DNA of 64,000 bases from the NCBI GenBank assembly GCA_000091205.1, contig AP006501.2. One strand, 5' to 3'. Position 1 is the stretch's first letter, and each line of letters starts with the position of its first letter. The DNA comes from Cyanidioschyzon merolae. Lineage: Eukaryota. The position numbers and the translations under genes were made by a program. This document shows positions 6,103-44,634 of this stretch, piece by piece. Below the pieces are notes generated by a model. It searched no databases. It was not told where the DNA came from and saw nothing but the letters and a program-made list of their open reading frames with translations.

Positions 6103-6119
6103 CACACACACACACACAC
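6103..6119. repeat. (CA)8 dinucleotide microsatellite, intergenic
   Basis: cacacacacacacacac read directly at 6103-6119. Confidence 0.7.
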
Positions 6120-13767: not shown

Positions 13768-15156
13768 ACGATCTTCGACGTGCTCTGTGAACGATGATTC
13801 GCTTCAGGCGACGTTGCGTTCGATGCGGGCTACTCAGACGCATAGACCACCAAGGGAGCTACGAGCTTGCATTGAGGAGCGTCATCCAGGAAAACGTCTT
13901 CCGATCACGCGAGCAGGTAGTCTTCGGGAACAGGTCGCTTGTGCAGTTGTCACGCTCGAACAAATCACCACTTTCTGGTCACTCTGAGCCGTTGATGGAA
14001 TCTGCAATCAAAGCATAGGACGAGCTGGTAGAAAATGAAAGGAAAACAGCGCGAAGAGCGCCTGGGTATACCTCTATCGGACGGTTTTGTGTTCTCTACC
14101 AAACGACATACGTTGTTGTTGACGAAACCGAGTTTCCGCGTTCGCACCGCGCTCGCCGTTTGCTAGACTCATTTCCGTGTTAAATAGGGCAGAGCCAATG
14201 ATGCGGGCGTACACTCGAAAGTTTGCGTCTCATGTGACTTTCATCAATACCAGCCTTTGCGGGCTATTTCTCCTACTGCGTCCTTTTCCTCTTTCTCATC
14301 ACTGTCATGAAGGATGCCGGTCTACACGGTTTCCCTACCTCCATTGCTAGCTTTCGAGGGATGCTGATGTCAGCGCTGCAATTCTGATTTCACCGCATCC
14401 GCCAAGTGTCGATCCATGTCATGCACAGACCATCGTTGTGAACTACGCGTTGATTTCCATTTTCTTCTTCTTGGTAAACTACCTCGCTGCGTCCTTCTCG
14501 CCTGGGTCACTTGACTGTGGTCAGGTATTCTTATGTACGTCCGTCCTGGAGCGGACACCCTCTGGGGTACGCGAAAGCCGTTCTGTCTCCGTGTCGCATC
14601 CGCACCGGCGCTAGAGGCGCTATCGCAGACGACCGGGGCAGGTACTCGGCGCGCGATAGAACGTATGAAACAACCAGCATATCCGAGAAGAGGTATGGGA
14701 CATGGAACTCGGAAGTATGGTGCATCATGATGGGCACTTTCCAGAATGCCAACATCCATTGCGCAATCAGGCAACGCGAGTCTGTGTCAACGTTTCGTCT
14801 GATGCAACGAAAAACCATCGTTTGGATTGCGCTGCAGGCGTCACGACACGAGCTGTGACACATGATGCCGCCATCGCCGCTGCCGCCTAGCGCAGCACGC
14901 GCATGGCGCAGAAATGACCCGAAAATATACAAATCTCCCTGAGCCTCCGGCGTGCACCGCGCACTGCACTGCAAGCGAGCGCTCTCTACGCTGTCTTCCG
15001 TATGGACAACTGTTGCGATCCATAGAACAACGCGCGTTGAGCCGCTGTTCTTAGAGAAACGGACCCGGGCGTGTGAATCTTGTTTCTTTTATAGCCCTAA
15101 ACACCGGGTTTTCTTGGTTGCTATAGAGAAGCCGTCAGACAAGACCAGCACACAAA

Positions 15157-22397: not shown

Positions 22398-23213
22398 TCA
22401 AGGCAAAGCAAGCATGTTCCGGTGTTCATAGTAGGCATAGAGTCGCTCAACGAGGGGGTCGAGGCTGAGCTTCACGCGGCGCATATACTCGTCTTTGCGG
22501 GACGCTTCCACTCCAATGGATGTAAGAAACTGTTCGATGGGAGGCAGGAAGAAAACCGCTGCACGAACCGCCGCAATAACGACGCTCCCGTGGTGTTCAC
22601 GCAGCGCCTCCTGGTACGCGGTCCAGACGCACTCGCGTGTCGCCGCGCGTTTCGAGTAGGACGCTGCCGGGCAGCGCGCGAGCTCCCGCATGAGTACCTG
22701 AATGAACTTGAGGCACCACATCATTCGCAGAATATTACGGGCTGCACCTTGCTTACCACTGCCGGTTTCCAGACACCCTTCTCGGGTTTCTCGCTCGATA
22801 ACCTTACGAATAGTGGCGTAATTCTCTGGGTCGCTCCGGTATATGCGGTACAGCGTGTCACGCTTTTCAACAACATCCTGGTGCGCGAAAGAGAATGCAG
22901 CACCGAGGTGCTGAAACATGCCCGCAACTGCGGACAAAGCCGCAATAAAGTCCAGCAGGTACGGCAGCGGCCAAGGCTCTTGCGCAGGCGGCTCGTCGTA
23001 GCGGATTCGCTCAAACGCTTCGAGAAACTTTTCGAATGAGAACGGCGTACCAGCGTCAGTGGTAATTCGATCAAGTTCGTTTCCTTTCGCTGACAACTCG
23101 CGAACGTGCATCCAAGATTCACTCTGTTCATCCCGTTGAGTCATAGTGTCGACCTGTCGGGAACGAGTGACCAAACGAGATGCGCCGTACCGCAGGTGTT
23201 CGGCGAGCCGCAT
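22398..23213 (-). CDS. Glycolipid transfer protein (GLTP/HET-C2 family)
   Basis: ATG at 23213 checked. FSFEKFLEAFERI...YLLDFIAALSAVAGMFQHLGAAFSFAHQDVVEKRDTLYRIYRSDPENYATIRKVIERE...ARNILRMMWCLKFIQVLMREL matches the GLTP fold signature regions. Confidence 0.8.
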   Translation of the reverse strand: MRLAEHLRYGASRLVTRSRQVDTMTQRDEQSESWMHVRELSAKGNELDRITTDAGTPFSFEKFLEAFERIRYDEPPAQEPWPLPYLLDFIAALSAVAGMFQHLGAAFSFAHQDVVEKRDTLYRIYRSDPENYATIRKVIERETREGCLETGSGKQGAARNILRMMWCLKFIQVLMRELARCPAASYSKRAATRECVWTAYQEALREHHGSVVIAAVRAAVFFLPPIEQFLTSIGVEASRKDEYMRRVKLSLDPLVERLYAYYEHRNMLALP

Positions 23214-23502
23214 CCGTCTTCCTCAACCGGCGCTATCGACGCTATTGCGGCCGCTTTCGGCAGGCACTAGCACCACGATAGGACGTATGAAACGACCAGA
23301 ATATCCGAGAGGAATTATGGGTAATGCAACTTGGAGGTAGGGGGTTGATGGATACCTCACCGCGCACTGAAAAAAACACACAAAAAAGTAAGAAAAGAAA
23401 AATGCACCAAATCGGAGAACGTTGGCCCAAGTAAAAGTTTTGACAATGAAAAAAATCCGTCTGCCTCACTGGACGTCGTCGAGCGATGGAGAGCGCGGGT
23501 GT

Positions 23503-24312
23503 ACAGCGACAGACGCAAGCACTGGCTCTTCCATTCGATTGCGAATGTCTGGATGGCGATACGGTCCGTGAGGAAACAGGTACCCGAGACAAAGTCCATA
23601 CTGGAGGAAAAGTTCCGCAATTTCGACTCAACTACGCTCCCTTCGCACCCACACGTGACCTATTGACCACCGGAGGCGATCGCTACGATGACTGCAATCC
23701 GGGTCCTTGGCCGTTTTCCATGCAAGCTGAGGAGCGCGGAGCCGCTGGGAGCGTGCTCCCCTGTGAGCGAGGTATCATGCTGCAGTCGACTTTGGTATCG
23801 TGGATGGCTACGACGAGATGCGGATTCGTGTTTCGGAAGACATCGATGATCGGACGCGAGCGGTTCCGTGAGCTGCCGCCTCTGACAGCCTGTGGTCGAC
23901 TTGTCACTGCGCGACGTCGCGATGCGCTCGATGTGCACCCAGCGGCGCGAGTCGCTGCGTCCACGCGGTGCCTTGGCGGGGAACCATCGAACACGTGAAG
24001 CGGGCGTGATTGGAACATGCTCCGCATTCGCACAAGAGCGTCACGGAGGCTTGGACGTATGCACGGGATACGGATATCGGTTGCTTTATGAACCGTACGC
24101 GGGAGGCGTCACGAGTCGCGTTGATTACGGTGACGTGCCGATGCCAGCGGGAGAACGTCGAACACGTCACTCTGGACACTCGATCGAGATTCCCTGAACC
24201 TCGTATGAAACCGTTGGCTCTGACAACTGCCATCGGCATGTCGAGGCTATGTGTTTCTGAAAACCCAAGTCCGGAACAACATCCGAATACGTGAACCGTA
24301 CGATCATCAGTA
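23503..24312 (+). repeat. Dispersed 810-bp element, copy A (near-identical to 34240..35049); no recognisable coding capacity
   Basis: Base-by-base comparison with copy B shows 5 mismatches in 810 bp, all in the 3' third. Flanks are unrelated. No long protein-like ORF, no terminal inverted repeats, no TG..CA ends, no obvious target-site duplication. Confidence 0.8.
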
Positions 24313-25206
24313 TAGTGTTTGAGTCTGAACGCACACAAGTGTGGATCCTCTGCGTACCGACTCGTGTTCATAGACGCACAGACAATCCGCTGAATTCATG
24401 GGTGTTGCTCCGTAACCAAAGGCCGCAATCTCTGCGTTTGGTATCTACCTGCCAGGAAGACTCTTTTACTCTTTAGATGCTTCTTGTGATCGTGGATGCA
24501 TTTCGAATAGGTTCGGTGCCGCGCCACTGCCGCATCCCAAGGTCACCCGGCATCGTGGTGCTCTCAGCGCTTCAGTTCGAAGGTATCTCGGGTGCGCTGA
24601 GGCGCGTCCAATAACCACATGTCGACTGTGGACGCTGCATATCAGTTCAGCTCGTCTGTTGTGTGTTCCTGTCGCGAGAAAACCGAACGTTGACGCAGCG
24701 TTGTCGCTTGCTCACCATTCACGGAAGCACGCTGTGCAAAGTTTCCAGTCAGTCGGCCGGCTTCACGCACCAGACATAAACACGGGCGAACCGAGTTCGA
24801 GTTCCGCGACGACCGCAACACAGCACCTGTCGCTGCAGAGACACCAGGCGGACTGAGTCGTGACCCGCTCGCCCGCCGGAGGCACGCGTGCTGCTCTCGA
24901 GGCCGGTACAGCGTTGTTCGTTAACGCTCGGGTGCTCGTTGAGTGGGTTACGGGGATCGGGCACGAGAACAGAGCTTCCTCGTCTGCACAAGCTTTGAAG
25001 CTCGTAGCGTCAACAACCGTACAGCGGGCTTTGCAGCCCCGGGAGTTGTCTACAGTTGCGTCTGGATGACGTTCGCGTTAACCTGGCACCGGTTATCGTT
25101 CAGTGCACGAGCGAGGCAGGTTCTCGCCGAACGTCGCATAGCGAAGCGGTGGCACCTGCCTCGCGATATGCACCAACGCTGCCAGCTTCGTCAAGCACCG
25201 TAAACT

Positions 25207-27954
25207 TTATGCAAACTTGGGAAACGACTCGCGCAAAGTCACCGTTCTGTTGAAAACGAGGTGAGGTGGCGAGGCCTCAAGCTGGGAGTCCGGGTCCACG
25301 CAATAGAACCCGACTCTCTCGAACTGAAAAATAGCGCCTGGTTGCCAATCATCCGCGGATTCGCACCGAGCTTGTTGCAGAATGCGCTCGCTCTTGGGAT
25401 TGAAGAAGGTCAGCCACCCGTCGCGCTCTGATAGGTTCTGCTCGGCAGCGGCTTGAAGCGGATCTTCCACGCAGAACAGGGGCTCGTACAAGCGGCATTC
25501 ACAGGGCATGCTTTTCTCGGATACCCAGTGCAACACACCTTTTGGACGAGGTTGCGGTAATTGGGTGAGAATCTCGGCATGCAGCAACTGAACTTGGTCA
25601 TCACTTGTGGCGGGCGCATGCTGGGCAGTCAAGGCGGCAAGAACGCGAATCGCGAACCCAGTGTGACGCAGCAGGGCTGCTTTCCCTGGTGCAAGCCCGT
25701 AATAGTCCTTCGCATCTTGTAAACGAAAATCAGTTCGCTCCAAGTAGATCATCGGGGTAAATTCGAGCGTACGCGTGCCCAACTCGGGTCGTTTGGGATG
25801 GTTCGGCACCTGCACGGTAACTGCTTCCGCTGCCGACAGCGCCTGGGCAAAGTTCTTCAGCAGCACGGGCAACGGTTCGAGCACCACCATGCGACGCGGA
25901 GCATGCTGATCCATATACTGACGCACACAAGCCTCTAGCTTGCGCAGATGCACGTTGTTCTCCGCCCGTGAAAACCCTACACTAGCCACAAAGTGGTTAA
26001 TGGCGACTGGCGTGTAGCCCCGGCGCCTCATGCCAATCAGGGTCGGCATGCGTGGATCATCCCAACCGCGCACTAAGCCGCGCTCAATGATCTGGGTTAG
26101 TTTGCGCTTGCTCAAAACCGTGTGTGAAAGATTCAAACGACTGAATTCAAAAACGAACGGCCGATACATGTCGAGAGCCTCTAGCAACCAGTAGTACGAG
26201 TCCCGTCGTATCTCGAATTCCAGCGTGCACATCGAGTGCGTAATCCACTCCAGCGAGTCGACCAGGCAGTGCGTAAAGTCGTACGACGGATAGATGCACC
26301 ATCGATCTCCGACGTGCGGATGCGCTGCGTACTTGATGCGGTATGCGACGGGGTCTCTCATGACAGGATTCGGATGCTGCATGTCGATCTTCATACGAAG
26401 AACGGCGGCACCCTCATCGTATAGTCCAAGACGCATCCGCTCGAAGCAGTCAAGGTTCTCCTCGACGGAGCGATTTCGCCACGGAGACGGACGCTTCTCT
26501 TCGCGATCGCGCGCCATCTCCTCAGGCCGCTGATGGCACACATAAGCCTTGCCACGTCGAATGAGTTCCACAGCGAGTTCATGCAGACGGTCGAAGTAGT
26601 CGGAAGAGTACGTGATCTGGTAGGGTTGATAACCCATCCACTGCACTGTCTCGATGATTGAATCGATAAAGGCCTGCTCTTCTGTGTCGGGGTTGGTGTC
26701 GTCAAAGCGCAGGATGCACCGGCCTCCGTTTCGCATTGCGTAACCAAAGTCGAGCAACATCGCCTTGGTATGACCGCAATGAAGATGTGCGTTCGGCTCA
26801 GGCGGGAAGCGCGTGACAACAGAGCATCCATCCGTATTTGCACGTTGCAGAGCGAGCAGCTCCGGTGTATTCCGCATGGAGTCTAACGATCGTGCGTCGA
26901 AATAGGCTGGTAGCGCTGCAAATGGATTTTCAGCGAGCTGCGCGTCCGTTTCGTTATCGATAGCCGATCCCGAGCCGATACCAGCGTGCCCGTCTTTCGT
27001 CTTTGGTGCGGAACTCGCAGACGTCGCGGTGTTGAGCATGCGTCGGTTGGTTTTGCAGCGATCATCTGATGGACGATCTGCCGCCTCTTTGCTGGTGGTC
27101 GTTGAGGCGCGCGATCCCGCTCCGGCCTCTGACGAGCGTGGGCCCAGCAACGCAAAGAGTTTTGCATCGACCGCTTCCTTGATGCGGCGGCCTTCAACAA
27201 AACGAACACGCCGCTGAACACCAGCGATAATGGGACCAAGTGGATACTTGTAGCCCCGCACCAACAGGTCGTCCATGATTGTCCGAATTTCTTCGTCGAC
27301 TGCAGCCGACAGCGTACTGTCGTCAACAACAACGCCCGCACCCACTGCAGCATTGAAGTCGTCGCGGTCAACTTTGCCCTCGGCAGCTGTGCCCGGAGCC
27401 GACTCGAGCAGCGCCTCGAGGTAAGCGAACGCCGCTTCGAGCTTGGCCGTGTTGTCGATGCGCCCGTCGCCAATTGCTTCAAAGATGAGCTCGCGAAAGC
27501 AGCGCAGTTTTGTCGGGAGCTTGCTCACAGCCACATAAAGCAGCGAGGCTTTCTGCGGCGTGAGTGCCTGCTCCTCAGGCAATCGATCCGCAGTCGACTC
27601 CAGCGCTGAACGTTTGGCCACTTGCACGGCCTCAGTTAGTGCCGCCTGGACTTTAGCCGACCGTGCGACCGCTCGAAGGTTTCGATCCTCAAGACCTAGA
27701 GCTCGCAACTGATCTAAGAGACCATCGTCACCGGAGGCAGCTGCAGCGACGGCGTTCGTCTCCATAACTACCAACGCAGCCGCAACGCAGCCGCGACACA
27801 GCACGACGGGCGCTAACGGGAGAGCCGTGCGTAGACGCCTGCGAAACGCCAGGCGTGGGAAAATAGCCCCAGCAGGGCGCTGCTGTCCAGGCGCTTCGAT
27901 GTCCGGTTTACGGCTGCGTTGCGATCCTGGCGTATGCACTCGGGTGCAGTGCAT
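25207..27954 (-). CDS. Glutaminyl-tRNA synthetase (class I; GlnRS), with possible alternative start at 27765
   Basis: ATG at 27954 checked. A second in-frame ATG at 27765 (checked) begins METNAV...LLDQLRALGLEDRNLRAV, which matches the GlnRS N-terminal domain. HIGH-type motif PEPNAHLHCGH. RFDDTNP and THSMCTLEF are GlnRS-type rather than GluRS-type. KMSKS-type VLSKRKL. Confidence 0.85.
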   Translation of the reverse strand: MHCTRVHTPGSQRSRKPDIEAPGQQRPAGAIFPRLAFRRRLRTALPLAPVVLCRGCVAAALVVMETNAVAAAASGDDGLLDQLRALGLEDRNLRAVARSAKVQAALTEAVQVAKRSALESTADRLPEEQALTPQKASLLYVAVSKLPTKLRCFRELIFEAIGDGRIDNTAKLEAAFAYLEALLESAPGTAAEGKVDRDDFNAAVGAGVVVDDSTLSAAVDEEIRTIMDDLLVRGYKYPLGPIIAGVQRRVRFVEGRRIKEAVDAKLFALLGPRSSEAGAGSRASTTTSKEAADRPSDDRCKTNRRMLNTATSASSAPKTKDGHAGIGSGSAIDNETDAQLAENPFAALPAYFDARSLDSMRNTPELLALQRANTDGCSVVTRFPPEPNAHLHCGHTKAMLLDFGYAMRNGGRCILRFDDTNPDTEEQAFIDSIIETVQWMGYQPYQITYSSDYFDRLHELAVELIRRGKAYVCHQRPEEMARDREEKRPSPWRNRSVEENLDCFERMRLGLYDEGAAVLRMKIDMQHPNPVMRDPVAYRIKYAAHPHVGDRWCIYPSYDFTHCLVDSLEWITHSMCTLEFEIRRDSYYWLLEALDMYRPFVFEFSRLNLSHTVLSKRKLTQIIERGLVRGWDDPRMPTLIGMRRRGYTPVAINHFVASVGFSRAENNVHLRKLEACVRQYMDQHAPRRMVVLEPLPVLLKNFAQALSAAEAVTVQVPNHPKRPELGTRTLEFTPMIYLERTDFRLQDAKDYYGLAPGKAALLRHTGFAIRVLAALTAQHAPATSDDQVQLLHAEILTQLPQPRPKGVLHWVSEKSMPCECRLYEPLFCVEDPLQAAAEQNLSERDGWLTFFNPKSERILQQARCESADDWQPGAIFQFERVGFYCVDPDSQLEASPPHLVFNRTVTLRESFPKFA

Positions 27955-27993
27955 CGATTCCGTCTAGGCATGCTCATTTTTCGATGTCCACGA

Positions 27994-28490
27994 CAATTGG
28001 AGGCTTGTTTCGCATCTATACGAGCTGTGGTATCTGTATCCCGGATCTATATACAAAATAGAGGATTCGATGTGTAAGACGATTAGAGGCTTGTTTCGCA
28101 TCTATACGAGCTGTGGTATCTGTATCTCGGATCTATATACAAAATAGAGGATTCGATGTGTAAGACGATTAGAGGCTTGTTTCGCATCTATACGAGCTGT
28201 GGTATCTGTATCTCGGATCTATATACAAAATAGAGGATTCGATGTGTAAGACGATTGGAGGCTTGTTTCGCATCTATACGAGCTGTGGTATCTGTATCTC
28301 GGATGTATACCCAAAATAGAGGATTCGATGTGTAAGACGATTAGAGGCTTGTTTCGCATCTATACGAGCTGTGGTATCTGTATCTCGGATGTATACCCAA
28401 AATAGAGGATTCGATGTGTAAGACGATTAGAGGCTTGTTTTGCATTTGTACGTGCTGTGGTATCTCTACATCAGATACAGGTACAGTCTG
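27994..28490. repeat. Tandem minisatellite, 86-bp unit x ~5.7, in the divergent intergenic region between GlnRS (-) and DHHC (+)
   Basis: Unit gattagaggcttgtttcgcatctatacgagctgtggtatctgtatctcggatctatatacaaaatagaggattcgatgtgtaagac recurs at 28081, 28167, 28253, 28339 and 28425. A partial copy lies at ~27994 and a degenerate copy at ~28430-28490. Confidence 0.85.
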
Positions 28491-29085
28491 GAGAATCCGA
28501 TACCCGCCGGTGGTCTGTTTTCAAAAGCCCTCTGCCGGTCGACAGCACGCGACATCAGGCTGCCAAACTCGGTTGCCACGCTGGACTTGTCGCCGGCATT
28601 CCAGACCGCATCGCTCTCGTTAACGATCTCAATCTTTCAAACAGTCGATTCAACGAAATTCACCAGATTCCCCCAAACGAGCGACTGCTGTCACGAATCC
28701 GCTGGAAAACGCGCAGTTTCCGCGCACTGCGTGTTTGGCAGGCATCTAAACTAGAACTAATTATATTATTAGGGACTAAATTACCATGTGGAAGCATTGG
28801 CGCTTCGCTGGACGTGGCGCGACGGCTGCCCGCCAGCCTCCCGCAGCACCCGCAACGTTGACGCTTCAGACGAAACGGTGTATGCTGGTATGCAGCTCGG
28901 CTGCAGTCGTTCCCGCTACTTCACGTTCGGGTTGCCTTCAGGGTCTCGAGACCTATACCACTAGTTGATTGCGGATAGTGGTGGCTTGACGTGTGTTTGT
29001 GTGTAAGCCGTACGGTGAGCGCGCTCTCGCGAGGGCGCGCGCCCTCATCGGACGTACAGTGCACGTCTGACACGGTGCGCTCGTG

Positions 29086-30222
29086 ATGGCGTGTCGAAAC
29101 CTGTGGCGCCTACCGCTCTCGCGCCGCTGGACGGGGCCTTCTTTCGCTCGTAGACGTGCGTTGAGTTTCGAGTACATTGCAGATGAAGCTCCCGGTTGTT
29201 TTGAGTGGTTTCTTGACTGGACGTCGCAGTTGAGTACGCTCTGCGCTCGGTACACAGGTCCTGTGTTCGTCTGTCTTGGCCTAGCGCTGATAAGTTTAAT
29301 CGTCTTCTCCTATTTTCGTCACATGTTACCAGCTCTCTATGAACTTGCGACGCGAAGCCCCTACTCAGGTTGGGCGCAGACGGCACTCCTCGTTCATCTC
29401 GTCATAGCACTCTACCTCCTCTACTGCGTCGTGTATGCGTACGCGAAAACGGTGACCACGGACCCCGGATCGCCGCCGCTCGCCGAAACTGTTCAGATGG
29501 CAGCACTTGATCCCCACATCGACGTCGCCGTCGTCGACGCAAAGCAGGGACGCTGCGCGGCTCGTGCTGCCACACCAAACTGCACCTGGACTGTCTGCGG
29601 ACGATGTCGTCGGTGGCGACCACCGCGCACACACCACTGCTCCGTTTGCCGCCGCTGCATCCTGCACATGGATCATCACTGCATCTGGATGAACGCGTGT
29701 GTAGGTTACCGCAACTACAGGTTCTTTCTCTCGACACTCTACTTTCTGGTCGTCGGGGCCGCCGATACGGTCGCTACGGTTCTCTTTCTCTGGTGGCGGG
29801 CATCGCATCGGAGAGAACTGCGCACGAACATCTGGCTCCTCTATTCCTTCGCACTGGCGCTTTGCCTCGGGGTCGCATTGTTGCTGCTGCTGGTGTTTCA
29901 CATTCGGATTCTTTCGCTGGGCCTCTCGACGATCGATTATCTCGCTGGCGGTGCGCGTGGCGCTGAGTCCGTAGCTGCACCGGTCGACTCGGGCGAGCGC
30001 ATGCAGCCGGGCTCGCAACTGGACCCCACGATCGGCAGGCATGGGCGTGCACCCCGACAAAGTCGCTTTTTCGAGCGGCTGCGGTTGAATGCTCGCAAGG
30101 TATTCGGCATCGAAAGACCATTGTGGTCTGTTTTTTTGTTTCCTCCCGTGCGTGGGGGCTCGAAAGAATCCCTTGCAGGCGAGCGACACCAGCCGGCTTT
30201 GCTTTCAGGCCTTGTGGTCTGA
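29086..30222 (+). CDS. DHHC-type zinc-finger protein S-palmitoyltransferase
   Basis: Track start 29083 is GTG; ATG at 29086. CGRCRRWRPPRTHHCSVCRRCILHMDHHCIWMNACVGYRNYRFF is a canonical DHHC-CRD. It is flanked by four predicted TM helices. Confidence 0.8.
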   Translation: MACRNLWRLPLSRRWTGPSFARRRALSFEYIADEAPGCFEWFLDWTSQLSTLCARYTGPVFVCLGLALISLIVFSYFRHMLPALYELATRSPYSGWAQTALLVHLVIALYLLYCVVYAYAKTVTTDPGSPPLAETVQMAALDPHIDVAVVDAKQGRCAARAATPNCTWTVCGRCRRWRPPRTHHCSVCRRCILHMDHHCIWMNACVGYRNYRFFLSTLYFLVVGAADTVATVLFLWWRASHRRELRTNIWLLYSFALALCLGVALLLLLVFHIRILSLGLSTIDYLAGGARGAESVAAPVDSGERMQPGSQLDPTIGRHGRAPRQSRFFERLRLNARKVFGIERPLWSVFLFPPVRGGSKESLAGERHQPALLSGLVV

Positions 30223-30690
30223 GCGAATAGTCGCAGCCGTGGCTGGCGTTCGGTGCATGCGTTGTTTCTCGAGGTTTGCTTGCAATCACCTGCTCTGCAC
30301 GCCACTCAGTTTCCCGCAGGTTCTTCGAAACAAGGACTTGCGATCTTGACCGATGAGCTGTTCGCTCGCTTGCTTCTCAAATGCTCTGAGTATTGTGCGC
30401 TGCTCCGCGCATGTACACTCGTCATAGCACAAGCCAATTTATGTGTACGATATCGAACGCGAATGTTCTCCCTACGAAACGATCCTGCAGAGCGGCTGCG
30501 CAGGTCCACCACCTCGTCCGTTCGGAAGAACGAGTGCATGTCGCGTTTTTGCAACATGGGACCGCTTTGAACGCGGCCGCAGCATTGCCCTGCCGCTCCC
30601 AGCACCGGTGCGATAACGTTCTTCATGCTCCTCTACGCAGAGCACGGATGCAGTCGCGACTAGCTCGTGCGAGCCTTTTCGCCGCCGTAT

Positions 30691-32421
30691 TCATTCCTCT
30701 TCCATGGGTACGTCGACCTGCACCAGCTCGATATCGAAGATCAAGAGTGCATTTTTCGGGAGCATTTGTCCGAACATTTCGGACATATTCTCGCAGCTTT
30801 CCGGGTGCACGTAAACGGTGCGCGCCTCGCCCTCGTGCATGTCGAGAACGATCTTTCTGAGCGCAGGCGGAGCGTCACCCACGCGCATGGTAATTGGATT
30901 CACCATTTCTCCGTTTTCATCGGACGGGCACGTAAAGAAGAAGCGCCCATCCAATAGACGGCCTTGCAACACCATCATGACGTTCACGTCATCGCTTTCG
31001 CATTTCTTGTGTGAGCCCCCTGCGGTCGCAGACGGCTCAGCGTCGTCGACTTCCTCCCAGACAATACGATCCGGTTCCAGGACATTAAACAGTTCTGGCA
31101 TTGTCTTTGCGGTCTCGAAGAAAGCTTCCGCCTCTTGCAAATTGATTTCACCAACGACATCATTCGCGATACCTTGTAGGATGCCCATCTGTCGCTCGTA
31201 TTTTGCGATATTAACCGGAAATTCTTTGCCGGCAAGCGCGTCACGAAAGCCGCGAATCACAAGCTCGTGATCGAGGCCGAATCCCGAGTTCAACAACGCC
31301 TGACCCAATGCAAAGCCATAGCCTATGGATAATTCGTTGAGATTCAGTCCCTGAGCACGTGCGAGCTCGCGCGTGCGCTCATCTCGCAACCGAGCACTCT
31401 CCTTGGCGGGATTTTCGGCCTCTGCGTCGTCAGCGCGTTCATCGTCTCCGGTATCCACCATGAGCCGGGATGAAGTCTGATGCACACCGTCGTGATGCCT
31501 GCGGTCGCTACCTGCCGCTGCATGGAGTGCGGAAGCTGCGCGCGCTGCGCCACTCGTCTGACCTGCTGCCTCGGTGGCGGCACTCAGACCTCCCTGCTGG
31601 GCGAATAGCTCTCTGGCAGCGCGCATAGACTCAGCCCATTTCTGAGGATCCTCCACAACTTCACGAAATTGCGGATCCGCATCCATCCATTGACGCAGAA
31701 AAGGATTGTTAAGGAGCGCTTGGCGCGACTCCTCCTGCTTCTCCGCAGATGAGAGGTACTCCTGCATTGCAGGCGATTCCCATAGTCCGCCCATTAACTG
31801 GGTCATCTGCTGCAACCAGTTCATGGTATCCGCCTGATCGCCACCTGCGGCGCCGCTGTTACCAGCGAGGAGCGACTGCAGGAGCGCGTTCGGATCAGCC
31901 ATGGCTGGGTTGGCGCCGCTGCTCCGCGAGCCTCGACCGCTGCTACCTGTGCCCAGGTTGCGCAGTTGCCGCGCAAGTGACTCGACGTCAGCAAGGCCAG
32001 CCCGTGAGCCTGAGCCTGCTCCTGCTCCTCCGGTTCCGGCTGAGGCCGCGGACGCCGTCCCAGACGTGGCTGTACGCGAGTTCCTCGAATCGCTTGAGGC
32101 GCCCGCAGCTGTGCTCTTCGTCGCCCGACTCGACGACGACGACGACGACACTGTGGCACTGTCAGCCGTGATACCGGGTCTCACGTTCCGCACTACGCTC
32201 ATAGTAACCTCAGTGAGCGCTTCATCAATGCCGTACGCTGATAGCGTTTGCTGCGGATTATCGAGTACCTGCCCACGGTACATCAGCATCTGATTCGTGA
32301 CCGGGATCCCGGCGCTCTTCTCCACCTCATTCTGGATCTCGTAGACAGAAGTGTGTACTCCCTTCTTAGGTACGACACTTATCTTCTTGCCGTTAAAGCA
32401 ACGAACTTGGAGCGTAAGCAT
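30691..32421 (-). CDS. Ubiquitin-like domain + STI1-like region + C-terminal FKBP-type peptidyl-prolyl isomerase domain (unusual fusion)
   Basis: ATG at 32421 checked. N-terminal UBL: MLTLQVRCFNGKKISVVPKKG...LMYRGQVLDNPQQTLSAYGIDEALTEV (ubiquitin-like). Middle: NPFLRQWMDADPQFREVVEDPQ is STI1/ubiquilin-like, with poly-Ser/Ala/Gly linkers. C-terminus: DDVNVMMVLQGRLLDGRFF...ITMRVGD...VLDMHEGEARTVYVHPE...LPKNALLIFDIELVQV is FKBP-like. Single uninterrupted 576-codon ORF. Confidence 0.7.
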   Translation of the reverse strand: MLTLQVRCFNGKKISVVPKKGVHTSVYEIQNEVEKSAGIPVTNQMLMYRGQVLDNPQQTLSAYGIDEALTEVTMSVVRNVRPGITADSATVSSSSSSSRATKSTAAGASSDSRNSRTATSGTASAASAGTGGAGAGSGSRAGLADVESLARQLRNLGTGSSGRGSRSSGANPAMADPNALLQSLLAGNSGAAGGDQADTMNWLQQMTQLMGGLWESPAMQEYLSSAEKQEESRQALLNNPFLRQWMDADPQFREVVEDPQKWAESMRAARELFAQQGGLSAATEAAGQTSGAARAASALHAAAGSDRRHHDGVHQTSSRLMVDTGDDERADDAEAENPAKESARLRDERTRELARAQGLNLNELSIGYGFALGQALLNSGFGLDHELVIRGFRDALAGKEFPVNIAKYERQMGILQGIANDVVGEINLQEAEAFFETAKTMPELFNVLEPDRIVWEEVDDAEPSATAGGSHKKCESDDVNVMMVLQGRLLDGRFFFTCPSDENGEMVNPITMRVGDAPPALRKIVLDMHEGEARTVYVHPESCENMSEMFGQMLPKNALLIFDIELVQVDVPMEEE

Positions 32422-34239
32422 CCGAGGAGACTCGATACCGACTGCACCTCAACCCGGGATGAAGCGACTCGAACGACGCCGGCTGCTCGTGAGGCGCACT
32501 ACGCTGGCCGGGCGCAGCAGCGGGGCGTGCGCAGCAGCGGGGCGTGCGCAAAGCGCTTGGGCATCGACGCACAGATGCATATTACGGCCCTAATTGTTCT
32601 ATTTTATTCTGGATCTTCCAGGGCCCTGCATGCGCGACGTGCCGCAGCAGGCGGCATTCCATGGTGTGCAGGCTCAAGATGACGCTGACCTGCTCATGAT
32701 GCAGTTTTATTACGGGGGATCCCTGGATCGAACGGGGTATTTGGTAGATACGTCGTTGCTTTGCGCAGATGGTCAGCAGAAGGAACAATGCTCTACGACC
32801 ATAGAGTGTACATCGATATATATCCACTTAGAGACGCTTTCCAGTGTTTTTTGACCGGCAGAATGCTCCGGGCTTCAGTTTCCCCCTGTATACTACGAGC
32901 GTGAGACGCTTCCCCGCAACGTTAAATCGCTTCAGTTCCTCGGTTCTCTTCTTTGGCGCTAGACATCGTCTTATATTCATGGCAGCGTTAACGTCTCGGA
33001 TCACGAACCCCACGCGTGCATTGCCTCTGGTGGAACTCATCAATGGAGGCATTCCTCGAACTCGTACCTTCTGTGCCAATACGGTCTCGTCGTTGGCGTG
33101 TCGGGCAAGCACCTTTTCTCGTCTACCTCTCCTCTTTCTCTTCTACTACTTTACCACTTGTTCTTTTTCGCTTGATGGTCGACGAGAGAGGATTTTGTTT
33201 CGTTTCTTTTTCAGGCAGCCGGAGACACCAGATCCCAAGATCCCCTACTTCCGTATCCATCCCTTTGCCCTGAATTTTCATTTTTGAAAATGGACGCACT
33301 TTGAACGTATCTGCTACAAACCGCGAAGACGCATTTGATCACACTCACCCTGGGGTGCAACACCATTGAAGCGAAACACTACAGTGGGTGCATCCATGAT
33401 GGCACACCAGACCGCCTGCTTCCACCGGGCACCATGCAAAAGTACCACGACCATCAGTCAGACTTTCCTCTCCGAATCATGGATAGCTCCAGAGCTACGT
33501 TGGACGTCGAGCCTGGTGTTGGCTGGAATCGCGGCGCTCAGCCAACGCTCAGCTGCAGACACCGCACAGAGACGGGACGGCTCTGTGGCATCCGCATGGG
33601 CGTCGGCTCGAGACCTGTACATAGTGGCGGTCCCGAACGCAAATTATAGGACGCTGTGAGATCCTGGTGAAGCATCGAGCAGTGTTTGTCGCAGAAGCCG
33701 CTACACGCGCACCTATATACCTATGAAGACTCATGTCGGTGTGGATGGAACGTGTCCACTCACTGGACACGTACATTCCGGAGGTTCAATCTCTTCCAAC
33801 TGATATCAAGATCAGCCTCTTGGGAGCTACTTCTGCGACTGCTTCCTGTTCCCCATTTGTATATCTGGATTTCAAAACGCCGGCTTCTCGCGTCCTTTTA
33901 GATCCATTCTCAGCAGTCGAAGGATTTTGGTAGCAGCGTCCAAGCCACGGCTTCGCTGTTGTCCTTGTTTTTCGCGCCCAGGCAGGAGATGCGATGTATG
34001 CTTCGGTGCACCGTTTGCAGAGCCGTCAACGCACAAGGGTCAGGTATTCCCATGAATGTCCCATGCGCATCATACTTTCGAAGGCTGCTCTGTGGCGCCT
34101 GTGCGCTTGCTTCATCGCTCACTTCATGCTTTTGACGGGTACAGAAAGATCGCCTCGATGCCCTCCACCGGTTCCGCGCCCGATGCAGCAGCGCTCGATA
34201 ACATGCGTCAGCAGGGCGAAACGCCTCGGTGCACCGCTG

Positions 34240-35049
34240 ACAGCGACAGACGCAAGCACTGGCTCTTCCATTCGATTGCGAATGTCTGGATGGCGATACG
34301 GTCCGTGAGGAAACAGGTACCCGAGACAAAGTCCATACTGGAGGAAAAGTTCCGCAATTTCGACTCAACTACGCTCCCTTCGCACCCACACGTGACCTAT
34401 TGACCACCGGAGGCGATCGCTACGATGACTGCAATCCGGGTCCTTGGCCGTTTTCCATGCAAGCTGAGGAGCGCGGAGCCGCTGGGAGCGTGCTCCCCTG
34501 TGAGCGAGGTATCATGCTGCAGTCGACTTTGGTATCGTGGATGGCTACGACGAGATGCGGATTCGTGTTTCGGAAGACATCGATGATCGGACGCGAGCGG
34601 TTCCGTGAGCTGCCGCCTCTGACAGCCTGTGGTCGACTTGTCACTGCGCGACGTCGCGATGCGCTCGATGTGCACCCAGCGGCGCGAGTCGCTGCGTCCA
34701 CGCGGTGCCTTGGCGGGGAACCATCGAACACGTGAAGCGGGCGTGATTGGAACATGCTCCGCATTCGCACAAGAGCGTCACGGAGGCTTGGAGGTATGCA
34801 CGGGATACTGATATCGGTTGCTTTATGAACCGTACGCGGGAGGCGTCACGAGTCGCGTTGATTACGGTGACGTGCCGATGCCAGCGGGAGAGCGTCGAAC
34901 ACGTCACTCTGGACACTCGATCGAGAATCCCTGAACCTCGTATGAAACCGTTGGCTCTGACAACTGCCATCGGCATGTCGAGGCTATGTGTTTCTGAAAA
35001 CCCAAGTCCGAAACAACATCCGAATACGTGAACCGTACGATCATCAGTA
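34240..35049 (+). repeat. Dispersed 810-bp element, copy B (near-identical to 23503..24312)
   Basis: Exactly 10,737 bp from copy A, same orientation, ~99.4% identical. It ends 406 bp upstream of the VPS13-like ATG. Confidence 0.8.
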
Positions 35050-35454
35050 CCATGGTGTCCTACCACGTTCTCGCCGGCGTCTAGACGCGCGCCCGTGCAG
35101 TGTTGAGTCTCGGATGCGCGGGCGTGTGCAGTTCCATCTGAATCATGAACAAGTCTGAACTTTCATAGATAATCTTGAACGGAGCGTTTCTTCATCCGGC
35201 ATGCGATGCGATGCGCTGCGCCGAGCCCCAACCAGAAACGCCTCCAGCTCCCGTTGATCCGCGAAACACTCGTACTCGCGGCTCGCCGCGCGAACAGCCA
35301 TTCATGGTGTGCCGCAGAATTCGCAACAGCTCCTTGACGTCCTGTATCCAAAACGTCTGGAGCGCTAGCACGGCGCTTGCGTACAAGTCTCTAGCAAGGC
35401 AGTTGCACCTGCAACCGCGCAAAGCCTTCAACCGCGAATGGTAACACCTGAAGC

Positions 35455-35972
35455 ATGCTGGAACGTTTTGTCGTGCAAAGGCTCTTGCGCTTCCTTGGTG
35501 ACTTTATCGAAGGCGGCCTCCAGGAGGAGCAGCTCTCGCTTCTCTTCGGTACCGGGAACAGCGTTGAGCTGCGGGATGTGCGTATCCGCTCGGACCGTCT
35601 GAAAAGTTTGCTCGCTGGAATCGGTTCGCCGGTGTATGTCCTGTGCGCCTCTGTGGGTACTTTGCGCGTGTCCATCGACCTGCGCGGGCGCGTCGCTGTA
35701 ATCGTCCGTGACCTCGTCGTTGTGCTCGCTGACCAGTACCCCGAGGCCGAGACCCGCCGGTCCACTGCCAGAGAACGCTATCGCAAAGCGATTCTGCGGA
35801 TCGATCAGGCGCAACGTCATTTGCGCCTGCAGCAGGCTTTTGAGGCAAGACCGCAACGCTCCGCCGCTACCGCCTCCGACGATGACAGCACCACTGTTTC
35901 TTCTTCGTCTTTAGCGGGACAGCGTTCGAGTGCATCCCCTCGTCGTCAAAACGACCGCCGCGATTCTCAGAC

Positions 35973-36011
<39 letters not shown>

Positions 36012-39000
36012 AGGAAGCGGGTGGGCCTTCTTCGGCTCCGGTGTGATCGAGTCGCTTATCGCGTACGTAGCGGATCGTCTCAGCATTCAGGTGGAGCGTG
36101 TGGTGCTCGGCTTTGCCGACCAAGGCGTGGTCATGCGCCGCGCCAAGGAGGTCTCCCCTCGCGGTTACCACTGGATCACTGTAGCATTCCTGGATCGCAT
36201 GCTGACCTCGGACTGGTCCCCGGAAAAACAGGAAGCCCCGTCCCTGGAACCCGCAAACGTACCAGGAACAGCTGCGAATCGGAGCAAGAACTTATTCGGT
36301 TCCGCACAGACAACAATTGTTCGAAAGCGACTTGCGCTCTCGGGGCTGCGTCTTAGCTGGATCCCCGACGGCAGCAAATCCCTCCGCAACATCAGCTGGA
36401 GTGATCCAGAGCTGGTACGCGAGTCTCTTTGGCGAACACGCGAAGAAAATGATGCCGACATTCTCGGACCCATAGAATTCGGCATTGGTCTCTACGTGAG
36501 CGGCTTCCGGGACTCGTTTCGTACCTGCATTCAAGCCACAGGGAACAACCTCGACTGCTCGCTGTCGCAGCTCCAGTATCTCGATATGGTGTCGGCAGCG
36601 CTGCGTCTGGGTGTTGGTCAAATAGCCAAGCTGTCTCTGTTGAGTGAGGAAATGACACGTGGCTCCCAGGAGTCCGCTGATCTTGGCCCAGGGATGCGAA
36701 AAACCGCCAGAGGCGAAGGAAGCGCTCCTGGACGTGCCGCAGCCCGCGAGCGCTGGGTGCAAGTCGTGCGCCATGTGCGACAGTCTGTTCGCCGTCGACA
36801 CGTCCCCTGGACCAGAGAGCACCTTTCCATGCAATGGACAAGACGCAAGCAGTACTTGGCGACATATTTAGCAGCAAATGTCCGCAGCGACAACCATTCC
36901 TGGCGTCTCGTGCAAGCGCTGGAGGAAACGATGGATTTAGAACAGATTCTGGCTCTGAGGGCCACCGCGGAAGCGTTGGTGCAACGCAGTCCACAGGAAG
37001 CGCTTGCGCTCTGTGATGAGGTGTCCATAGCCGCCCTGGTGGTGGTCAGTACACCGCGTTTCCAGCGTCTGCGACAGCAACGCCTAGTCTCCTGGTGCTT
37101 ATGGATGCTCTCCTGCATTTGGAGACTCGGCGCGCTGCTCTGGAGTGTACTGGAACGTCGCATATGGGGTCTGCGGCCGCTAGCCCACAAACTGGTACAG
37201 ATAGGGCGCACGCTGCGGCCGCCAATTCTCCAGGTATTGGCCGGTCAGTGGCTGCTCTCAGCGCCGACATTGCTTCCCGCAACCTCCGAGGAGGACGCCG
37301 ACCTCAGCCAGACAACAGAACATATCCTGGGTTCACTACATTCCTACATCCACACAGACTATGAGCGTTTCCTGCAACAACGCGACCTTCGCAGCAAACG
37401 TGCAAGTTCACCGACAGCCGCGCTAGCACCAACCCGAACATCGTCAATGCTTTCTGGCGAGCACGGAGGACGGAGAACTGCATGGGAAAGTGCGCTTGCT
37501 GCTGAAAGTGCAGTATTCCAACTCGATGTATCCGTGAACCGCGTGCAGCTGGCACTGTTCCAGGAACACCAACTAGTGGCGTTCACAGGAGCTCGTGCGT
37601 TCGCGGCACGCAGCAAACTGCTCAGCACCGCAGCAGTGCAGCACATTGGATGCCAGCTGTTCATCTCGAGTGCCCAGAACCTTGCAGTACGGGCCTGGCT
37701 GGCCCAGCTGCAACTCCGGGACGAAGCGAACAGGATCCTGGTGTGCAACCGCTATTGCCCTGGAAACCATGAGTCCGCTCACGGGACGCAGCAGCCACAG
37801 GCCCGGAACGCTGAAGAATCCGTTCCGGAAAGTGACCTCTCGTTAACTGGGCGCGATGAAGCACCCGAGGCTTTCCAGTTGCGACTGTGGAATCCTCGCC
37901 AAGGACTTGTTGATCTGGAACTGGATTTTGCGCCCTTGTCCGTTCGGATTTCCGCTGTACTGGTGCAGGCTTTGCTCCGGTTCTGGATACCTGAAACGCT
38001 GGCCTCCTTTGCGATGCAGGGCAGACGGTATGCTGCGCGCGTCCTACATGGTCTCCAAGAACGCCTGGTCCGCTCTGATGATGCTACTCTTGTTCAAAAG
38101 CTGAGCTCCATGTTCATGCAGCTTCGCTTTGGAGGTATGTTCATTGTTTTCGATGAAGACTTCCGGCTTCTGGAAGGCGCTGCAGTGACCTCAGCGGAAC
38201 AGTCGTCAACGTCACCCGAAGCATCACCTGCGTCGCTGGTGCTTTGCGTACAGCTCGCTGGAGCAGAGTTTCTCATGGGCGAGGAAACCGCCTTGACCGC
38301 TCACAGACAACCAGCGGATCAAGCGGTGCTCTTGGGCATCGACGCATTTGCCTCGTCCGTCCAGAAAGCACAGCAGGTGTTTGCCTTTCTGTCATCGTCA
38401 TCATCAGAGACGCGGGTGGACTTGCAGGGTACGGGCACCGACGAGCCCGCGCAGCAGACCCCACCGGAGACGCCCTATGTGGTCGACTCTCGCGTGGTGC
38501 TGCGCTTTCCGGGCCTAACGATCGGCTGGTGCCATGAAACCTCCGTTGAAGCGGCTAGCGCAGTTGTGCCCGTGCGAACGCTCTTGCAACTGGGCACCTT
38601 GCGGATTGGCAACACGATCGAACACTGCCTCGTAACGCAGGATCAACGACCCAAACTCCTAGCGCGGATTCTGGTGGGCATCCTCCTGGAACGACTCGCA
38701 GTGACTGCGGGCCTGAGCGACATCTGGGCGCTAGTGCAGGTCGCTTTGCGTTACCAACGTGTCATCCAGGATATACAGGTGATTTTGAGAGAAAACGATG
38801 CAGATCTATCCACGACGAGTCACCAGAACAGTTTGGACTCGCTTCGGGAGGCAAGCATATCATCGAACGCTTCGTCATCATCACCAGTAAGGAGTCGTGA
38901 AGCAACCAACTCGATATCGCGGGAGCTCGGTGCTGCGAAGATGCATCCGCCGCAACTGCAACAAAAGAGAATGCGAACACGCGAACGTGAACCGCATTTG

Positions 39001-42000
39001 CGAACCGCGTTATCGTTGAGACTGAACGAGCCCCTGCATGTGGAACTAGCTCTGGATCATGGCAAGTCTGCGACGATGACCCGTCACTGGCTACTGCGTT
39101 CCCGGATCGGCGTTCAAGGGCGACTGCTCCTGTACTCCAACCAGTCGATGTTGAGCCAGCTGCAGGCAAGCGGTATCAGTGTGGAAGCGGATGCATCAGG
39201 AGAGCGGCCCCGTTCCTGCCAAGTGCTGTTGGTAGCTCCCTTCCAGGGCGAGTTGGAGGCAATCTTCGAAGCCGCTGCTTCTACTTCTACTTGTACGACT
39301 AGTGATGCTACCGCGCTGCCGACACTGGACTGCGCACTGCGCTTGGATGCGATCGATGTGGTGCTCCCGTTCTCGTTTATCAGAGAGCTGGTGGATACTG
39401 GACTTGCATTCGGTGCCCTGTTGCACCAGGAAGTGACCCGCGCTGCGCCACCCGGGTCGCTGGAGACTCCGGTTACCATCACCCGGACAAGAGCAGCGGA
39501 TGATCAGGAGCCGTTCCTCTGGAGCGCAGACTTGAGCGCCCTGCCTGGCAACGCGAGCCTTGTCTTCGAGTTTGCTACCTCGGATCGAGCTGGCTACCTG
39601 GGAGTCGACCATCAGGGCCGCGTCCACGGTCCGGTACCCCTGGAACAAGCTGCGCGTTTCCGCGTTCAGCGGGTGCGACGCAAGGGCGCTCCCGTCGGTG
39701 TGATGCTGAAGCTTGAAACGGACCAATCCTCGGGCATGACCAGCACTTTTACGGTGCAAGTACTCGCGGACTTGTCGGATGTGTCGTTCGATGGACGTAC
39801 CACGAAGCCGACCCCAGCTGGGCCACACCTGGGTATCCGTCGCATTGCACCGGAGCTCCGGGACGAGGTTTGCCAACGCTCTCTGGAGCGGCTTTCCACG
39901 AACGGTACGGAATCTTCGGTGCTGGAAGCAACAGCTGGTTCGGAAGCAGGTGAATCCTCGGGAACGCTACCAGCAGCAGCAGCAGCAGCAGCAGCAGGGA
40001 CTCTCGGCTCATCCGGAAGCGCAGGTAACCGCCCGGAACGCAGCCGCTCCCTGAGACGATGGCTCGGAAACTCCGACTCGAGTACTCGATCCAGTACTGA
40101 AGTCGGAAGCGCTGCAGCAGACAAGGCGGATCGTCGCCAGCAGCGAAGCATCGCTACAAGTGCAACCAAACGAAAGCGTTGGCGAACCCGAGTAGCGGCT
40201 GGCGCTGGTGCTTCCACTGCTTCTGCCGATGATGATGATGCTGATGCTGATGATGATTTTGGTAATGAGCGCAACGATCAAGTGCTGCGTGCCTGTACCT
40301 GGGAATCTGTACCTGTTCATGGCGTGGCGGAAGCAGTCCTTCTGAGGCACGAAAAGAGCGGCCACTGGATAGGGCGAACACCAGCAGCTGGACCTGTTGA
40401 AGCGCACGACGCATCCAGTCCGGATGAAGCGCTGCACCTTGACTTGTTGCCCGGCGCTAGTGCAGCGCTGCCGTTGCGTCCGCTGCTCCTGCAACGGGCC
40501 CAGCACTTGGCCCAGTTCCAGCCGCTGATACGGATTCGTGCACAAGTGGCTGCCGCGGGCGTGCTCGTTCGGCTCTACGAATGGATGGACGAGGCAGCTC
40601 GCTATCGACTGCCGTTGTTAGCGCTCTCCGCGGTACCCATTGATGTACAGTCGGAGGTTTGTGTGTACCCCAGTGCGGCTGGCGTTGAACCGGAGCTCTC
40701 ACTCGCGCTCTCGTTGTGTCCGACGGTGAGCAGCTACCGTTTGGCACAGAGGCGATGGCGCGACCTGCTCGAGCCGGTGCCACTCTCTATGCAGGCGAGT
40801 TTGCGGGGAAAGCCTCGGTTTGTGGCGTTCCAGCTGCAGTTGGGCACTGCCGAACAACCGCTTCGGTTGCATGCGTACCCGCGTGGTGTGCACCTTATCA
40901 GCCAGCTGCTGATGGACCTCATGGATCGGACTGCAGCTTCGCGACTCACCACGGACTGGTGGTATTTCCACAACGAGACCGAAGCGACCCTGCAGTTGCA
41001 ATGGGACCTCAAAAACAGCACCCAAAACGTCGACAACGATGATAATGTCGACGTCGACGAGCCTGTTGTCGTCTATCCGGGTCAATCGGTGTGTTTGTAT
41101 CCGCCACGAGCCCTGTTGAGGCGAGCGCTGGTGCGCCTTGCGGACCTGGAAGCCGCCGCTCGTCAAAGAAGCGACGTTCCAGAGCCGTTCACTGCGCGTA
41201 TCCAAGTCGTGGGCTTCGGAACGCTACCTCCAGTACCGCTGCAAACGTCGGATGTGGTATCGCTGCCGCTCGAGCCGGACCCGGTTTGTACGACGAGTGC
41301 CACGCCAAGCGCCCGAACTCCGGTACCTGCAGACACAACCGAGAAGCAGACGCGTGGCGGTCGAGTCACCGCAGCATGCTCTGCACCTGCTGAGCGCTCC
41401 GTAAGCATTGCACAGCGCTCTGGAACGGAGTATCCGGCTGAGCGGGCTGGTGCAGACCCGACCACTTTGACAGCGACACGGGCGGCATTGTCCCAGCGAG
41501 TGTCCGCCGAGCAGCGGCTACCGACGGATGCACCTTTTGAGGTCCGGGCAAGTATCGACACGATGCAGCGTGGAAACGCAGCTGCACAACCACGTCTGCG
41601 TCTCCCAGGAGCAGCAGCAGCACCAGCAGTAGCAACTGACTCGACTCGTCGTCGTGTCGACGACAGTGAACGTGCGGCGCCTGTTGTGCTCTACTGGGTG
41701 CGCCTTAGCGATGGCTATCGTGACCATTTCTACCTGTACAGTCGGACCAAAGTCGCGAACCGTTGTCGAAGCATCGCCTTGTACGTACACGGTTTCCTAC
41801 CCGAGCACGAACGCCGTCATGCGGAAACTGTGCTTCGGAGGCAGGGGCGATCACCAGCGCTGGTGCTTCTGCAGCTGGGACGCACAGCAACTGCGCTTCG
41901 TTCAGCATCGAAGGAACCTTGGCGCAAACTCGGTCGAGGATTACGAAGCTTTTTCGGCATTCGGTCAAAGACACGGGCGATTCCCGAGCGACCAGCACCG

Positions 42001-42354
42001 CTACCCGGCTTGCCAGCGGAATCGTCTGGCTCTTGGTACGCGCTGATGCCGGTGAACATGCCGCAGTCTGAGTCCAGTGCCTCTGCAGCACCGGTTTCGG
42101 AACCTGCTGCAGGTGTGCTGGAGCCAGAGCAGGCACTCTTTCTGGGGACTTTCCTGCGGCCGACGCGCCTACGCCTGCTCCCCGTCACATCGACAAGTCA
42201 ACGCGTGTTCAATGAGGAGGCGTCTGCTATCGGAGGTCTAGAGTTTCCGCTCGTTGCTGGCCAGCTATCGCTGACGAGGAGCTATTTCCTGGTAGCTGCA
42301 GCGGTGGACGCTTCGTGTCAGCGCTTTCGCGTGATGGAGGTGGGTGCTCGTACT

Positions 42355-42389
<35 letters not shown>

Positions 42390-44595: not shown

Positions 44596-44634
<39 letters not shown>

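Follow-up and report, generated by a model that had tools for sequence, protein, structure and literature searches.

To our knowledge, Cyanidioschyzon-type genomes are famous for having "almost no transposons". Repetitive DNA has nevertheless been described in this group. The "novel interspersed repetitive element" of Cyanidioschyzon merolae 10D is present in 253 copies with a mean length of 3.2 kb, makes up ~5% of the genome and carries a truncated open reading frame (ORF) with weak similarity to wsv486 of WSSV (white spot syndrome virus) (Nozaki et al. 2007, PMC1955436). The intergenic regions of Cyanidioschyzon measure 1890 bp, compared with 930 bp in Cyanidiococcus, through repeat expansion, and repeats account for 12.7% and 0.59% of the two genomes, respectively (Cho et al. 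2023, PMC9812998). A survey of MITEs (transposable elements of the miniature inverted-repeat type) reported none in C. merolae (PMC3964958). In addition, homologous recombination is efficient in C. merolae and its relatives, where loop-out between engineered direct repeats has been reported (PMC13353863). We analyzed a 64,000-nucleotide stretch of contig AP006501.2 (the window; positions refer to this whole stretch), in which two direct copies of an 810-bp sequence, copies A and B, lie just upstream of two lipid-transfer genes and bracket a block of other genes. We consider it probable that A and B are old, non-coding pieces of a transposon relic, that A is a partial duplicate of B, that the two were homogenized by gene conversion, and that they have no role in the lipid-transfer genes beside them.

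The repeat pair and its concerted evolution

Comparison of the window with itself by BLAST bore out the first claim of the original prediction, two 810-bp direct copies around a 9.9-kb block. A and B are identical at 805/810 positions (99.38%), with five mismatches, no gaps and the same orientation; the copies start 10,737 bp apart and are separated by 9,927 bp. The pair is genuine and far beyond chance. The distances claimed for it were also correct, i.e., A starts 290 bp from the ATG of the glycolipid transfer protein (GLTP) gene at 23213, and B ends 406 bp from the ATG of the large lipid-transfer gene at 35455. The identity ends abruptly on both sides (left flanks, ...GGGTGT in A and ...CCGCTG in B; right flanks, TAGTGT... 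in A and CCATGG... in B). BLAST with a word size of 7 detected no further similarity in the flanks, and a 12/13 match, offset by 48 nt in B, was marginal (p ~0.01 before correction). The mismatches are confined to offsets 554-772, with none in the first 553 nt; under a uniform spread, this clustering in the last 257 bp has a probability of 0.003. Inspection of the junctions revealed no target-site duplication around A, and A has no poly-A or simple-repeat 3' tail.

An assembly artefact was ruled out by independent metagenome contigs that span A and B with both flanks. Organelle genomes of this clade are AT-rich, and the 810-bp repeat has a GC content of 57.5%; on this single test, an organelle-derived insert is unlikely.

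The metagenome contigs of the Joint Genome Institute (JGI) were scanned for a 26-mer near the left end of the repeat. Seven contigs were obtained, four in the context of A and three in the context of B. Copy A is spanned with both flanks by L017, L021 and L022, and copy B by L020 and L023. The repeat occupies these two contexts, and no third context was found among the seven contigs. The A junctions and the B junctions are identical in all sampled strains, and the duplication is fixed in the sampled populations; at this level of identity, the copy number is two. This GLTP gene was present on ten independent contigs, which all stop 165-724 bp upstream of its ATG; 4/10 run into copy A.

We then aligned seven full copies, namely A and B of the window, the A copies of L017, L021 and L022, and the B copies of L020 and L023. 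Window A differs from window B at 5 sites, from the A copies of the other strains at 14-16 sites, and window B differs from the B copies of the other strains at 12-14 sites; that is, A and B follow a pattern of concerted evolution. Taken over the same-locus copies of other strains, the range is 12-17 sites. Compared with the other full copies, window A and B have private variants in common at offsets 105, 129, 465, 574 and 597. The variant at offset 422 is also common to both, and the same base occurs in one partial A copy of another strain. At sites 554, 653 and 688, polymorphism occurs in A as well as in B. Since the junctions are identical in all strains, the duplication predates the divergence of the strains and a later exchange between A and B is required. 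The comparison of these sequences indicates that A and B have probably undergone ectopic gene conversion. Repeated conversion of this type since the duplication would keep the two copies nearly identical.

The dispersed family of about 1.35 kb

When copy A was used as a profile query, two more copies, ~50% identical to it, were detected in the window at 56794-57490 and 1804-2548. Longer queries and models built from the copies (nhmmer) extended the family to ~1.35 kb. The window contains three full copies of ~1.33-1.38 kb (B, C and D) and two fragments (A and E), which together make up 8.2% of it (Table 1). Pairwise identity among the copies is 51-58%, the A/B pair being the exception. The left flank of B (33727-34239) aligns with C, D and E, whereas that of A does not. 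A is therefore a piece of the family element, and the 810-bp stretch of B belongs to a full-length member.

The + strand carries all five pieces of the family in the window, though the genes are on both strands; the probability of this is ~1/16, and the sample is too small for significance. The end of copy C and the stop codon of an opposite-strand, 1880-residue CPSF-A/DDB1-like gene are 6 bp apart (57594-57600), so the 3' untranslated region of this gene must extend into the repeat. Two further arrays are tandem repeats, one at 52185-53198 (period, 144 bp) and one at 55708-56202 (period, 128 bp), the latter directly to the left of copy C.

An exhaustive HMMER search with a 170-residue ORF overlapping the element yielded 24 diverged ORF clusters, and the contigs of 7/24 clusters carry further copies of the family, full-length ones among them (L025-L036, from the same organism). 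The genes of this window are also present in the samples from which several of these contigs derive. One of them, L029, has co-oriented copies at 5406-6753 and 8062-9430. The neighbors of the family on these contigs are galactokinase (GalK); a PANTS-like gene together with kinase/PP2C; GET4, cytochrome c and NDUFS2, with two copies bracketing cytochrome c; photolyase and PRP8; and ClpP and SNARE. The other neighbors in the window are a PPR gene, GDT1, ribosomal L11, a fatty-acid hydroxylase and the CPSF-A/DDB1-like gene. No bias toward lipid-transfer genes was visible among the neighbors in the window and on the further contigs.

We assessed whether the element encodes a protein or an RNA. Each frame of each copy contains 6-20 stop codons, the longest ORFs differ in position and strand among the copies, and no ORF is conserved. 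Substitutions among the copies show no 3-base periodicity, and no Pfam match was found in the element. The codon-usage scores of the ORFs in the element were -0.27 to +0.04 bits per codon, compared with -0.12 to +0.07 for out-of-frame ORFs over genes and mostly 0.10-0.17 for real genes. A protein-coding element was ruled out by the Pfam search, the codon scores, the stop codons and the absent periodicity. Similarly, there was no Rfam match over the element at E <= 1, and single-sequence folding gave z-scores of -0.11 and +0.78. Consensus folding, for which a windowed alifold of the 8-copy alignment was compared with column shuffles, gave energies of 0 to -7 kcal/mol per 200 nt in all windows; the alifold z-scores were mostly within ~±1.5, and four windows showed -2.1 to -3.2 at near-zero energies. 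A structured RNA was ruled out by the Rfam search, the fold z-scores and the near-zero consensus energies. The element contains no tRNA, and a tRNA-derived short interspersed element was ruled out, there being no tRNA, Rfam match, tail or target-site duplication.

The ends of the element resemble inverted repeats of ~17-20 bp, with the consensus TGTCAGAATGAAAATGGAAC. As inverted repeats, the consensus ends agree at 16/17 positions (TCAGATGAAAATGGAAC versus GTTCCATTTTCATCCGA; shuffle p < 0.001), and in-register inverted ends were found in 4/9 individual copies (p = 0.015-0.07). The right end of B (35050-35067) agrees in register with the right terminal repeat at 11/18 positions, a weak similarity that was matched by eye; family-like right tails did not reach significance in A or in B. 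A scan of the window for the terminal-repeat consensus with <=5 substitutions gave no match, the copies carrying indels. The family is, most likely, what remains of a non-autonomous DNA transposon with terminal inverted repeats (TIRs) that underwent a burst after the split from Cyanidiococcus. Such a burst agrees with the published repeat expansion (PMC9812998) and with the abundant element of C. merolae (PMC1955436).

A second dispersed repeat of ~200-260 bp, f2, occurs in the window at 14575-14830 (+), 23225-23463 (+), 4861-5103 (-) and 63549-63745 (-), and on L029 at 9608-9867 (-). Identity is ~71-75% in the two best pairs. Each of the five copies is located 12-450 bp upstream of a start codon (L11, GLTP, GDT1, the CPSF-A/DDB1-like gene or NDUFS2), in either orientation, and the interval from the GLTP ATG to copy A is taken up by the copy at 23225-23463. 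An f2 copy abuts each truncated piece of the larger family, coming after the left part (fragment E) in one case and before the right part (fragment A) in the other. E-f2 (14161-14830) and f2-A (23225-24312) resemble the two halves of one f2-interrupted element; these halves are separated by 9 kb, with genes between them whose order the relatives share. For f2, we found neither an Rfam match nor a conserved fold, and the GLTP upstream regions of the relatives do not contain it. If there is a promoter-associated repeat here, it would be f2 rather than the 810-bp element; with five copies, its position may also be due to chance.

Table 1. Positions of the repeat copies and of the genes in and around the bracketed block.
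Feature	Positions	Strand	Remark	Basis
Copy A	23503..24312	+	810-bp internal piece of family element; family-model positions ~613-1422	self-BLAST, profile alignment
Copy B	34240..35049	+	810-bp stretch 99.4% identical to A, within full-length element B	self-BLAST
Element B, full length	33734-35067	+		nhmmer
Element B, left terminal repeat	33734-33751	+		nhmmer, end comparison
Element B, right terminal-repeat remnant, weak	35050-35067	+	begins exactly where A/B identity stops	
Copy C, full length	56219-57594	+	~52-54% identical to B	nhmmer
Copy D, full length	1248-2613	+	between PPR gene and GDT1 gene	nhmmer
Fragment E	14161-14541	+	left ~380 bp including left terminal repeat	nhmmer
GLTP gene	22398-23213	-		Pfam PF08718, E = 2e-29
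Glutaminyl-tRNA synthetase (GlnRS) gene	25207-27954	-	inside block	Pfam
86-bp minisatellite	27894-28581	.		repeat detection, self-BLAST
DHHC palmitoyltransferase gene	29083-30222	+		Pfam
Ubiquitin-like/FKBP (UBL-FKBP) gene	30691-32421	-		Pfam
3729-residue gene	35455-46644	+	chorein-N-type N-terminus, VPS13/ATG2-like	Pfam matches below threshold

Origin of copy A and alternative explanations

The A/B identity starts at an internal point of B, and A is without the left ~500 bp of B. A has no terminal repeats, target-site duplication or 3' tail, which argues against transposition and retroposition. Copy A would thus duplicate an internal stretch of B, 810 bp in length, at a site 10.7 kb from it. 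The duplicate may have been made at the DNA level, via ectopic templated repair or duplicative conversion, without transposition. We infer this repair- or recombination-type origin of A from B with moderate confidence.

Several points weigh against our account of the pair as a converted partial duplicate of a neutral transposon relic. The right end of the A/B identity lies within a few nt of the inner edge of the terminal repeat of B, an edge that a random repair event would reach only by luck. On the right flank of A, the alignment with the family extends for ~20 nt, weakly and without significance (p = 0.54); given this extension, an old resident copy of the family may have been present at the A locus. 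The conversion argument assumes that the assembly of the window resolved both copies, which the five differences show at least for the last third, and that the metagenome contigs are not A/B chimaeras or consensus mixtures. The transposon origin of the family is not firmly established: 5/9 copies are degraded and have no detectable inverted ends, candidates for a target-site duplication of 7-8 bp occur in 2/9 copies only (L029a and L029b), and a CGACNCC-like motif is common to the flanks of different copies. Finally, the presumed neutrality of the element is read from its high between-strain divergence (1.5-2%, compared with ~0.7% overall).

The alternative that survives best, which we regard as unlikely, is that A and B are independent ancient insertions of the family, A being truncated, and that gene conversion, either continuous or recent, homogenized the 810 bp they share. 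Conversion between A and B is evident, the left boundary of the identity coincides with the end of the family sequence at A, and the family alignment passes the boundary of A by ~20 nt, with a low posterior probability. However, the similarity of this tail of A to the family is not significant, as given above, and conversion cannot begin between copies that are only ~55% identical. In addition, the co-oriented L029a and L029b, ~2.6 kb apart, have diverged to 57%, indicating that proximity alone does not homogenize copies.

We give less credence to A as a recent insertion of a still-active mobile element, either transposase-mediated or as a 5'-truncated retrocopy of B. A keeps the right part and is without the left part of the element, as a 5'-truncated retrocopy would be, its ends are sharp, and, of the retroelements, it is those without long terminal repeats (LTRs) that have been reported in C. 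merolae (PMC1955436). However, A has neither a target-site duplication nor a poly-A or simple-repeat tail, it stops before the terminal repeat, and fragment E is truncated on the opposite side. Moreover, the insertion junctions are the same in all sampled strains, and the 26-mer scan of the metagenomes revealed no third copy of the subfamily.

A and B were also considered as an LTR pair and rejected. Their ends are ACAG...AGTA, not TG...CA, their flanks (GGTGT / CCATG) are unmatched with no target-site duplication, and the interior consists of GlnRS, DHHC and FKBP in an order that is conserved in Cyanidiococcus without the repeats.

It is improbable to a higher degree still that the pair is mainly a substrate for unequal crossing-over, by which the 10.7-kb block would be excised (as a circle or a deletion) or duplicated. 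An 810-bp direct repeat with 99.4% identity would be suited to this, recombination between A and B did occur in the form of conversion, and the loop-out of direct repeats has been shown experimentally in C. merolae and its relatives (PMC13353863). However, all five spanning contigs and both partial contigs have parental junctions; neither an A-left/B-right nor a B-left/A-right junction was found among the seven. The block holds GlnRS, the deletion of which should be lethal in a haploid, and the gene order is stable as far as Cyanidiococcus. The direct-repeat recombination put forward in the original prediction thus stands as far as the exchange by conversion is concerned; no looped-out or duplicated junction was present in any of the seven contigs.

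Relatives, neighboring genes and comparison with known systems

We compared the locus with those of two relatives. In Cyanidiococcus, GLTP, GlnRS, DHHC, UBL-FKBP and the large lipid-transfer gene have the same order as in the window, and the element was not detected in this locus by word-7 BLAST or nhmmer. The spacers of Cyanidiococcus are 700 bp (at GLTP) and 1146 bp, compared with 1993 bp and 3033 bp in the window, i.e., the spacers here are ~two to three times longer. In a second relative, with 77% GLTP identity, GlnRS is located 426 bp from GLTP, and no element-like sequence was found at the GLTP locus. The GLTP spacers of the relatives (426 and 700 bp) are too short to hold the element. 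The element therefore appears to be absent from the orthologous loci of two relatives and to be lineage-specific. Since the gene order is kept without the element in Cyanidiococcus, the linkage of GLTP and the large lipid-transfer gene is older than the element. In the 77%-identity relative, synteny with the window is lost directly upstream of GlnRS; in Cyanidiococcus, the order is preserved in full.

The weakest explanation, a promoter-proximal cis-module or non-coding RNA that co-regulates the two lipid-transfer genes independently of orientation, is very improbable: the copies lie within 290-406 bp of both start codons and are 99.4% identical, but the family also stands beside GalK, cytochrome c, NDUFS2, PRP8, kinase/PP2C, GDT1, PPR and the CPSF-A-like 3' end, the element is absent at the orthologous loci of the two relatives and diverges more between strains than its surroundings, and it has no Rfam match, fold z-scores of -0.1 and +0.8 and no conserved family structure. 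The shared module of the original prediction is not sustained, given the many copies beside unrelated genes and the absence in relatives. Findings of the kind named beforehand as telling against it were made, namely many additional copies without a bias in their neighbors and the absence of the element where the relatives have GLTP and the lipid-transfer gene. The third possibility raised there, chance co-location, is favored, as the old linkage predates the element and a short-range duplication landed in that neighborhood. The apparent link between the repeat and the two lipid-transfer genes is coincidental, and no regulatory hypothesis should rest on it.

The Pfam search and the mapping of the array confirmed that the repeats enclose GlnRS, the 86-bp minisatellite, DHHC and UBL-FKBP. 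An exact look-up of the GlnRS ORF gave no match, probably owing to a different start codon. There is an overlap between the minisatellite and the 5' end of the GlnRS ORF, which is long (915 residues, compared with 849-867 in relatives), and the copy number of the minisatellite varies among metagenome contigs. The 3729-residue ORF had been labeled VPS13-like. Its chorein-type N-terminal matches uphold this in part; they score below the cut-offs of Pfam (ATG2_CAD, 39.6 bits with a cut-off of 50; VPS13_N, 26.3 bits with a cut-off of 80), are restricted to the first ~220 residues and do not demonstrate VPS13 identity. Pfam detected no mid or C-terminal VPS13 domains in the protein; "bridge-like lipid-transfer protein" is a safer name than "VPS13". 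Homology searches with the N-terminus of this protein, and with the concatenated ORFs of the element, gave no match among the 8000 candidates to which each was limited, and no absence follows from this.

The GLTP protein has a 100% identical counterpart in hot-spring metagenomes; its identity is 72% with the protein of Cyanidiococcus yangmingshanensis and 54% with the one of Cyanidium caldarium. From these identities, the host is a red alga of the Cyanidioschyzon/Cyanidiococcus clade that occurs in hot springs. The genes of the window, which are intron-free and on both strands, and its GC content of ~56% are consistent with this placement.

An old, transposon-like family takes up ~8% of the window in a "minimal" red-algal genome, which fits the reported repeat-driven expansion. 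We also entertain, tentatively and as less likely than its opposite, that the ~1.35-kb family, perhaps together with f2, is an undescribed lineage-specific TIR family behind much of the intergenic doubling relative to Cyanidiococcus. If this is true, A/B would be a natural reporter of ectopic conversion, and with it of homologous or meiotic recombination that is still under way in populations of these algae in the wild. The pair offers a clean natural case of ectopic conversion between 810-bp repeats 10.7 kb apart in algae that serve as recombination-proficient genetic models.

Among the known systems, the element of Nozaki et al. (2007) is similar in being interspersed, intergenic, lineage-specific and several per cent of the sequence (~8% here); compared by description only, the present family differs in its length (1.35 kb versus 3.2 kb) and has no conserved truncated ORF. 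An LTR retrotransposon is likewise marked by direct repeats of several hundred bp that bracket ~10 kb, whereas the interior here consists of four host genes and B is embedded in a longer family element. Non-autonomous TIR or MITE-like elements share with the family its dispersal, non-coding nature, uniform length, inverted-repeat-like ends and confinement to the intergenic DNA of a compact genome. However, the family is ~1.33-1.38 kb in length, above the usual limit of <800 bp for MITEs, its copies are very old (51-58% identity) with no target-site duplication established, and no autonomous partner is known for it, no transposase search having been made. The closest resemblance in behavior is to low-copy repeats under interlocus conversion: A and B are two non-coding paralogues on one chromosome with sharp boundaries, the paralogues are closer to each other than are between-strain orthologues, polymorphisms are shared, and the differences are tract-like. 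They differ from such repeats in that the pair is very small (810 bp) and comes from an internal piece of a transposon relic, and in that no crossover products were seen for it. In these terms, A/B is an ordinary transposon-derived low-copy repeat under gene conversion.

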